Assembly (NCBI GenBank): GCA_947478395.1
Contig: CANJVR010000008.1
Coordinates: 32,001-96,000, forward strand
Length of the DNA: 64,000 nucleotides
Reading direction: 5' to 3'
From: Opitutia bacterium
GTDB lineage: Bacteria; Verrucomicrobiota; Verrucomicrobiia; Opitutales; Opitutaceae
The notes below the pieces were generated by a model. The model worked only from the letters and a program-made list of their open reading frames with translations, ran no database searches and was not told the origin of the DNA. This document shows, piece by piece, positions 57,047 to 59,101 of this stretch (position 1 is the stretch's first letter; every line of letters starts with the position of its first letter). The translations under genes and the position numbers were made by a program.

Positions 57047-59101
57047 TTAGCGTCCCAGCAGAGGATCCGGCCGCCGGGCGAACTGGGGGTGCGTTTCGAT
57101 CTTTTGCGCGAAGAGAGGCTTGGCCTCTTCGCTGAGATCGGCGGGGAATTTCGACGTGCTACGCCGCCAGCGGACGAGCCATCCATCGGCGAGCAGCGGG
57201 GGTTTGAGCGGGTGGGCGAAGGCGCGCTCGTGATGGGTGAAGGCCGCGGTCGTGGCTTCGCGCGGACCCGAGCCCACGCCTTCCGCGACGAAAAAACCGG
57301 CGGCGAGCAGCGCCACGCGCACCGCGGTTGCCGATGAATAGGTGTACAGCTCAGCCGGCTTTGGTGCGCTGTGTTTAAAAAGTCGGGTAAACACTTCCGC
57401 CGTCCAGAGGGCCGTGTCGGTTTTCGCGGAAAACGGATCGTAGAAAACCAGATCGGGCGAAGCGGCGCGCTCGAGGAAGTCGAGAAAGTTGCCGTGAAAC
57501 AATTCCCAATGGAGCCGGCCCGAGGCGTGCCGCCAGCGGCCGTCTTTCAGCAACGCGTGCGGCGCGCCGTGACGGAGGTGGGTGAAGTGCCCGCCGTGCT
57601 TCGCGGCGAGCGTGAGTGGATCGAGGTCGCACTCGAAACTCACGAGCCGGACGGTGCGGGTTTTTTCGGGGCCATGGGCGGCGAGCGTTTGCTCAAAACA
57701 TTGCAGGGCGGCCATGGCGTTGGAGGCGGCGCCGAGGCCGACGTCCCAAATCACGAGTTCGGTATCGGGCGCGGCCGGTTCAAGCAGGCGCGCCGCGAGT
57801 TGCGACTGGTCGACATAAAGTTTCTGCGCCTCTTCGCCGGGCGCGTTAACCGAATGCATGATTTCGCCGGAGCTAATCTGGCGGATGCTGGCGAAACCCT
57901 GCGGGCTTTTGTGGATCTCGTAGTCGCCGAGTCGGGGAAATTGGTAGGCCTTGGCTGGTTTCGGTCGCACGCTCGGATTGGCCTCGTCGGTGCGGACCAG
58001 TTCGATTCGCTTCCGTTCGTACAGGGCGGCGAACGTGTCGTCCAGGATGCTGGCTCGGAGCTCGCGCATCAGTTGATGATAAAATGAGAGATTGTGCGTC
58101 GTGAGCAGATGCCAGCCGAGAATCTCGTCGGACTTTATCAGGTGGTGCAGATATGCGCGGGAATAGTTTTTGCAGGTATAGCAGGCGCACTGGTCATCGA
58201 GCGGAGCCTCGGAAAATTTGTGGGCGGCGCGGCGGCATTGCAGTTTTCCGTGGGAAGTAAACACGGTGCCGCGCTGGGCGAGTTGCGAGGGGATGATGCA
58301 GTCGAACATGTCCACCCCGCGGTGCACCGCTTCGAGAATATCGATCGGTGTGCCTACGCCCATGAGGTAGCGCGGCAGGCTCTTGGGTAGATGGTCCGTC
58401 ACGAGGCCGGTGAATTCATAGCGCTCGGCGTGCGTTTCGCCGACGGCGAGGCCGCCGATCGCAAGACCGTCGAAGGGTAATTCGCGTAAAAACGCCGCGC
58501 TCTTTTTCCGCAGGTCGTGGTGACACGCGCCCTGCACGATGCCGAAAAGCGCCTGCGGTGAATCGCCGCGCGCATCCAGCGAGCGGCGGGCCCAGCGGTG
58601 CGTGAGTTCCATGGCGGCCGTCGCCTGGTCATGGGGCGCGGTCGAAGGGATGCACTGGTCGAGTGCCATCATGATGTCGCTGCCAATGGCTTTTTGCATC
58701 CCGATGCTGGTTTCGGGCGAAAGCAGGTAGATGTCGCCGTCGACGTAGCTGCGGAAGCGCGCGCCCTCCTCGTTCATGGCGCGTTCGCTTGGTAGGGAAA
58801 AAATCTGGAAGCCACCCGAGTCGGTCAGCACCGGGCCGTCCCAATTCATGAAGCGATGGATGCCACCGAACTGGCGGAAAACATCCGGGCCCGGCCGCAG
58901 CAGCAAGTGATAGGTGTTCGCGAGCAGCACGCGGGCGCCGGCGGCTTTCAAGCTTTCAACCGTCTGGCCTTTAACGGTGGCTTGGGTGCCGACCGGCATG
59001 AAGACCGGCGTCTGGACTTCGCCGTGGAGGGTTTGAAACGTGGCAGCGCGTGCCTTGGATCCGTTGGCTTCTTTTTGGAGACGAAAATTGAGTCGGGACA
59101 T
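57047..59101 (-). CDS. tgt: tRNA-guanine transglycosylase fused to a C-terminal MnmD/MnmC-type methyltransferase
   Basis: [54 protein letters not shown]; then MHS, DVGLG, SFE, YDPFS....LW, TYSSA..VR.AL..AGF. Confidence 0.93.

Follow-up and report, generated by a model that had tools for sequence, protein, structure and literature searches.

A single frame of 684 codons in the window (the whole 64,000-nucleotide stretch of Opitutia bacterium DNA that was analysed) joins a TGT to an MnmD-like methyltransferase, and raises the question of which reaction the two domains would carry out, and on which RNA. A sequence-only reading of this DNA had described the fusion by its motifs and had reported that it lacks an FAD oxidase domain. 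Both points held: every quoted motif is present in the translation, and a Pfam/NCBIfam profile search of the 684-aa protein found no FAD oxidase (MnmC1) domain. The TGT part matches PF01702 over residues 16-363 and scores 456.3 bits against TIGR00430 (cut-off 306.75). The methyltransferase part matches PF05430 over residues 526-620 with 50.5 bits, above the cut-off of 22; its match to the MnmC2 profile NF033855 (residues 412-619) reaches 70.7 bits, under the cut-off of 136, as are the 77-78 bits of two unfused relatives. The ATG start agrees with the starts of the homologs. A predicted monomer model (mean pLDDT 91, pTM 0.58) suggests that both domains fold and does not fix their mutual arrangement; the modelled TGT part matches Z. 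mobilis TGT with a target TM-score of about 0.95.

Features of the fusion gene, in window positions
Feature	Position	Strand	Basis
Whole gene, 684 aa: TGT* domain, linker and MnmD-like methyltransferase (MnmD*)	57047..59101	(-)	single open frame
TGT* domain, residues 16-363	58013..59056	(-)	PF01702, TIGR00430, alignment to Z. mobilis, model
Altered specificity segment, residues 269-277 (Q273, Q276, I269)	58271..58297	(-)	alignment to Z. mobilis
Pro/Lys-rich linker, about residues 364-393	57923..58012	(-)	pLDDT falls to about 70
MnmD-like class I N-methyltransferase core, about residues 394-625	57227..57922	(-)	residues mapped to Aquifex DUF752 (PMC3527978)
C-terminal extension with W..RW.RS and HPQF motifs, typical of the MnmD* subfamily	57077..57226	(-)	

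The fusion gene is probably transcribed alone, because it is convergent with an ORF ending at 56661 and divergent from an ORF at 59421. A promoter scan gave nothing exceeding chance, and one metatranscriptome contained short pieces of relatives only, which do not amount to evidence of expression. The convergent ORF (55630-56661, plus strand) encodes 343 aa with no Pfam or NCBIfam match. Elsewhere the window encodes a Suv3-like DEXQ helicase (50701-52818, plus strand; PF22527, PF12513) and proline-rich exported proteins (59421-60542, plus strand, and 61711-62223, minus strand), and a luciferase-like monooxygenase gene lies between a pair of paralogous glycine-zipper lipoprotein-like genes.

The 684-codon fusion is genuine and occurs widely. 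An assembly artefact is ruled out: PF01702 and PF05430 both occur in all of the best 120 homologs listed (the first being the query protein), and TGT and methyltransferase sequences share a single frame at 78 of 79 genome loci, a count that excludes one locus (L100, genome G304) and includes one cut by a contig end (L066) and one in which a frameshift also breaks the TGT part (L068). Judged by record titles, fusion homologs occur in Opitutaceae, Binatia, Riflebacteria, Bacteriovoracaceae and Avigastranaerophilus, a distribution that is patchy across phyla. Among 151 Opitutaceae genomes, 54 have a strong PF05430 match, which in 52 lies in a frame longer than 680 aa. Across one set of 83 loci and another of 81, we found no conserved neighbour beyond the partner gene, and no recurring dpd, restriction or defence gene beside the TGT; tRNA genes, of three different types, lie near the fusion in only 4 of the 83 loci. 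Viral contigs gave no confirmed match to the fusion, and none of the 71 matching records of a plasmid collection covers 80% of the query; a phage or plasmid element was thus set aside.

One preprint names the TGT/MnmC2 fusion in a single sentence, as one among four further types of MnmC2 fusion, and its fusions have the identical domain architecture, COG0343/PF01702 plus MnmC2; the main text uses 'TGT' once and says nothing of a function, of a second tgt, of residue changes or of unfused forms (bioRxiv 10.1101/2023.12.21.572861). The accessible text of PMC12632869 and PMC9976899 does not treat the paralog described below. A literature search, which took in a minority of subscription journals, found no paper on this paralog or on the unfused pair and no report of N-methyl-preQ1 in RNA. 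New here are the separate clade to which the fused TGT belongs, its loss of an arginine pair, and its pairing with the methyltransferase whether the two are fused, adjacent or elsewhere in the genome.

The sequence-only reading had proposed that the fusion offers a shortcut alternative to queuosine maturation by QueA and QueG. This part of the proposal did not survive: the genome of the window (G000, 98.8% complete) contains all the genes sought, namely a second tgt, queA, queG and mnmEG. The second tgt is a stand-alone canonical gene, and queC and queF are present as well. At least two Tgt matches occur in 54 of 54 Opitutaceae carriers, and a second Tgt in all 27 TGT* genomes of a phylum sample (defined below) and in 21 of 22 further carriers, which were chosen by non-Opitutaceae record titles with G304 excluded, and of which G310 has its copy in pieces. 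Similarly, 48 of 49 other carriers have queA; in a set of 21 carriers, 15 have it no more than 5 kb from the canonical tgt, and none has it that close to the fused gene. Replacement of QueA/QueG is thus ruled out by the retained canonical tgt, queA and queG; because the second tgt and queA are retained, with queA often near the canonical tgt, the fusion is an addition to the queuosine pathway. The presence of queF does not discriminate: it occurs in 54 of 54 family carriers but also in 148 of 151 family genomes overall. In one family genome (G282:C24:53222-56569) some 3 kb separate queF and the fusion, an arrangement that did not recur as a pattern. ARAGORN made 44 tRNA calls in the genome of the window, of which the additional Arg(GCG) and Tyr(GTA) are apparently spurious; an unusual target tRNA in this genome is not supported.

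To place the fused TGT, we grouped sequences by context and not by motif: a Tgt was assigned to the paralog, which we call TGT*, if it was fused to the methyltransferase, adjacent to it, or among the best homologs of one adjacent copy. After dereplication, 75 TGT* rows split from 30 other Tgts with an SH-aLRT support of 95 in a quick tree, and FastTree support for the TGT* clade was 100 with the specificity columns and two long-branch rows taken out. The fused TGT thus belongs to a distinct paralog clade. Its active site is conventional: D94, D148, C150 and Q190 correspond to Z. mobilis D102, D156, C158 and Q203, and G217-L218-A219-V220, E222 and D267 to G230-L231-A232-V233, E235 and D280, and the zinc ligands are C305, C307, C310 and H336. 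In Z. mobilis numbering, D102, D156, Q203, G230, L231, A232, V233, D280 and all zinc ligands are present in 75 of 75 TGT* sequences, E or D at 235 likewise in 75, and C158 in 74. In characterized Tgts D102 and D280 are catalytic and D156, Q203 and G230 form the guanine pocket (PMC5699537), while C158/V233 and L231/A232 are markers of preQ1 use (PMC3660597; PMC5699537). The preQ1-type bacterial pocket that the sequence-only reading had recognized in the fused TGT is therefore confirmed, with its residues fully conserved across the clade.

The segment after the catalytic aspartate is altered. The canonical T-R-x-x-R-N has become S-Q-L-A-Q-R in the fused TGT, which places Q273 and Q276 at the positions of Z. 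mobilis Arg286 and Arg289, and I269 replaces Val282. Both arginines are present in 56 of 56 distinct canonical Tgts versus 4 of 379 distinct TGT* sequences (3/247 fused, 0/14 adjacent and 1/118 myxobacterial-type), and positions 286 and 289 rank second and third among the columns that best separate the two groups. Across the clade, position 289 is mostly Gln, position 286 is Gln, Lys or Ala, Val282 is replaced by Ile, and Lys52 is often Arg; Lys at 286, a conservative change, occurs in 35 of 75 TGT* and characterizes the myxobacterial branch. In the Z. mobilis Tgt-RNA complex of Xie et al. from 2003, Arg286, Arg289, Val282 and Lys52 reportedly read U35, and we take the positions altered in TGT* to be this U35-reading site of the anticodon; our literature search found no statement that Arg286 and Arg289 read U35. 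The aspartate equivalent to Z. mobilis D267, presumably the U33-side aspartate, is kept in 75 of 75 TGT*. Canonical Tgt requires U33-G34-U35 (PMC5699537; PMC4425180), and E. coli Tgt needs K285, K292 and R320 for binding of the tRNA stem (PMC13416341). These three positions are basic in 46, 64 and 58 of 75 TGT*, respectively, a retention that fits an RNA stem-loop as the substrate. Without the two arginines, recognition might become looser or weaker and not be redirected to another target.

The methyltransferase part, MnmD*, belongs to what we take, by family, to be the aminomethyl N-methyltransferases. Motif I (GxGxG plus Asn), the motif II Glu, the DxF Asp and the motif VI Tyr/Phe are all present in the fused domain, whose key residues are H416, E424, DVGLG 453-457, N461, E490, D555 (of DPFS), F557, W566, Y588 and R595. 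The catalytic motif is therefore intact. The catalytic D555 is conserved in 36 of 36 MnmD* rows; the equivalent of Aquifex Asp174 is Asn538 in this protein and Asp in 35 of the 36. The best solved match of the MnmD* profile is Aquifex aeolicus DUF752/MnmC2 (PDB 3VYW, E 1.3e-28), in which the DxF aspartate is the proposed catalytic base and a tyrosine stacks on the substrate (PMC3527978). MnmD* shares with this enzyme the equivalents of GxGxG plus N, Glu133, Asp193 of DxF and Tyr225, and the absence of an oxidase (PMC3527978), and differs from it in its low NF033855 score, its C-terminal extension, its link to TGT* and its position in a clade of its own, separate from four conventional MnmD/MnmC rows in a tree that carries a long-branch warning. 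The unfused form is a separate protein of about 280 aa, and the Pro/Lys-rich linker is missing where TGT* and the methyltransferase are separate genes.

The fusion appears to work like a Tgt plus an MnmD but departs from each family in one defining feature, the lost arginine pair and the NF033855 score below cut-off, respectively. TGT* shares with Z. mobilis and E. coli Tgt (TIGR00430) the fold, the catalytic aspartates, the guanine/preQ1 pocket, the zinc site and most dimer-interface positions; unlike them it forms a separate clade, has lost Arg286/Arg289, has Ile for Val282 and often Arg for Lys52, is nearly always an extra copy, and has a methyltransferase partner in place of queA. It does not resemble the archaeosine TGT/DpdA type: L231/A232 are kept, versus Val/Val in the preQ0 type, and the TIGR00432 score is 139.5 versus a cut-off of 350. 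Nor is the fusion a bifunctional MnmC, as the FAD oxidase domain is absent from it and no TIGR03197 match in the genome exceeds the cut-off.

Does the partnership extend beyond the fused protein? We found that it persists when the two are fused, adjacent or elsewhere in the genome. Of 80 metagenome loci fetched by the methyltransferase alone, 21 are fused and 20 have a separate tgt; 36 have no tgt in the available DNA, and 3 are start-truncated. Of the separate tgts, 17 have a readable motif, and all 17 are TGT* without the arginine pair. Stand-alone TGT* also occurs in Myxococcus (ABF90882.1 in M. xanthus DK1622), Corallococcus, Stigmatella, Hyalangium and Pyxidicoccus. When 101 genomes of the phylum of G308 (the phylum sample) were scanned with a TGT* profile, they split cleanly, 27 scoring at least 553 bits and the others at most 491. 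MnmD* is present in 27 of 28 TGT* genomes (the 28 include the contig-cut fusion of G308), and 7 of 34 MnmD* genomes lack TGT*; these genomes are related, not independent. Because of these 7 genomes, a TGT*-independent use of the MnmD* subfamily exists. The sequence-only reading had suggested that the fused domain methylates preQ1 in tRNA: although its QueA/QueG shortcut has fallen, the preQ1 pocket and methyltransferase motif are intact and the coupling is tighter than a chance fusion would give, and preQ1 methylation is therefore a serious reading.

We propose a two-step module that would run parallel to the normal queuosine pathway (tgt-queA). In the first step, suggested by the residues, TGT* would exchange guanine for preQ1 in an RNA stem-loop; since it would no longer select U33-G34-U35, it would probably act on a G34 tRNA other than those for Asp/Asn/His/Tyr, or elsewhere in RNA. 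In the second, suggested by the partnership, the MnmD-like domain would transfer a methyl group from SAM to the nitrogen of the free aminomethyl group; the product would be 7-(methylamino)methyl-7-deazaguanosine, and MnmD* would be to TGT* what QueA is to canonical Tgt. Insertion of preQ1 by TGT* at an RNA site other than GUN, followed by N-methylation by its partner, is the reading that accounts for most of the observations; it concerns activity, target and product, and we give it a chance not far short of even. The broader proposal is a tentative one, which we judge somewhat less than evenly probable: Opitutaceae, Bdellovibrionota, Myxococcota and scattered other bacteria would have a second deazaguanine pathway, which places N-methyl-preQ1 at a G that does not belong to the four GUN tRNAs, such as G34 before A35 or C35. 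To our knowledge, G34 of the four GUN tRNAs is regarded as the sole place of deazaguanine bases in bacterial tRNA. If the proposal is right, ordinary 'tgt' annotations conceal a wobble modification that resembles queuosine but serves a new set of targets: both the nucleoside and the decoding target would be new, many of the proteins now annotated as queuosine Tgt would be mis-assigned, and RNA labelling would gain a natural Tgt that uses a different sequence tag.

The same base is made in phage DNA, where DpdA and DpdM produce mdPreQ1, N-methylated preQ1 (bioRxiv 10.1101/2023.04.13.536721). As in our proposal, a transglycosylase acts first and preQ1 is then N-methylated, whereas DpdM has an unrelated metal-binding fold and the substrate is DNA, as that preprint describes. 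TGT* also differs from the phage system in having no dpd genes nearby and about 45% identity to tRNA Tgt.

The main challenge to the methyl-preQ1 reading is that MnmD* may act as an Aquifex-type MnmD, methylating the nm5(s2)U34 that MnmEG forms with ammonium and so giving mnm5(s2)U34, while TGT* would be a linked but chemically separate wobble enzyme or a helper that binds the anticodon loop, and any inserted preQ1 would stay unmethylated. This was the duller alternative of the sequence-only reading, two independent wobble enzymes on one chain; it has real support, though we consider it less likely than the methyl-preQ1 reading. The genome context is compatible with it: the genome of the window has mnmA, mnmE and mnmG, the fused domain is its only PF05430 match and its only MnmD/MnmM-type enzyme, and no MnmM, MnmL or MnmC1 (TIGR03197) in that genome reaches the profile cut-off. 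The closest solved relative, Aquifex DUF752, is itself an nm5U methyltransferase, and its catalytic and SAM residues are retained here. In addition, mnmG is found in 44 of 49 carriers (absence from the other 5 is compatible with incomplete genomes), and solo MnmD* without TGT* occurs in the 7 genomes noted above. None of the 19 MnmM-bearing Opitutaceae genomes has the fusion, where 6.8 would be expected, and conventional MnmD/MnmC-like matches are rarer in MnmD* genomes of the phylum sample (6 of 34 versus 32 of 67 others). However, a divergent QueF, as judged by QueF scores, is common to 13 of these 19 genomes, and the exclusion therefore probably reflects one or two lineage events. A full MnmC stands beside the fusion in G312 and G366, which favours the methyl-preQ1 reading in that some carriers have other candidate nm5U methylases; weaker MnmD/MnmC-like matches occur in carriers G346, G359, G380 and G402. 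Neither methylase is present in 78 of 151 family genomes, the NF033855 score lies far under the MnmC2 cut-off, and the co-occurrence of fused and solo MnmD* in 7 genomes argues against a purely housekeeping nm5U role. Further, nm5(s2)U methylation leaves unexplained that canonical Tgt never serves as the partner, which is TGT* in every case, fused or not, and that TGT* lacks MnmD* in just 1 of 28 genomes. If it were nevertheless correct, the missing nm5U methylase of these lineages would be assigned and an orphan Tgt paralog left over. The methyltransferase could also serve both substrates, preQ1-RNA and nm5(s2)U.

MnmM matches in the 19 of 151 family genomes sit in frames of 546-702 aa; the one frame examined (L137:283-1929) encodes a 548-aa FAD-oxidase/MnmM fusion. 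Five genomes (G300, G303, G306, G311 and G313) have two full-length mnmG-like genes each, on one contig in four of them.

It is quite improbable, in our view, that N-methyl-preQ1 is instead made on the usual G34 of tRNA-Asp/Asn/His/Tyr, on a subset of these tRNAs or only at times, such as when QueA/QueG become limiting, parallel to queuosine. The intact preQ1 pocket, the invariant aspartate equivalent to Z. mobilis D267, the Lys286 of 35 TGT* sequences and the presence of queF in all 54 family carriers (though it is nearly universal in the family) would agree with this, as would the three fused proteins that keep both arginines, which count against a non-GUN target, as does the conservative change to Lys at 286 in the myxobacterial branch. 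Against the usual tRNAs, the pair never varies in canonical Tgts and is lost nearly everywhere in the TGT* clade; a replacement is also unnecessary, since canonical tgt and queA persist in carriers, in many of them as an operon.

Some other TGT* chemistry upstream of the methyltransferase, on xm5U34 tRNAs (by analogy with MnmC1 and MnmL, which unmask the aminomethyl group for MnmD/MnmM), on mRNA or DNA, or in deazaguanine release for salvage, is very unlikely: other fusion partners of these methylases do generate substrate (bioRxiv 10.1101/2023.12.21.572861), the fusion never accompanies the oxidase-MnmM fusion (0/19) and its distribution is patchy, but the invariant guanine-reading pocket would be unsuited to uracil, the tRNA-stem-binding basic residues are retained, and the loci offered no dpd, restriction or defence neighbour, viral-contig match or plasmid record covering the fusion.

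The stand-alone canonical Tgt of the genome of the window (G000:C1:673134-674210, L001) has both arginines but one of three zinc cysteines, unlike TGT* of the same genome, which keeps every zinc ligand. The sole Tgt of G033 (L048:305-2242) has a GGCLGS pocket unlike the preQ1 type, which we take to be possibly queuine-inserting. Twenty genomes of the phylum sample have two Tgts without TGT*, and most of them also have a weaker MnmD-like match, not adjacent in three checked. The phylum of G308 also contains a further Tgt paralog (L274:330-1535, L276:411-1559 and L278:498-1634) with Lys286, Arg289 and a Ser preceding the catalytic Asp.
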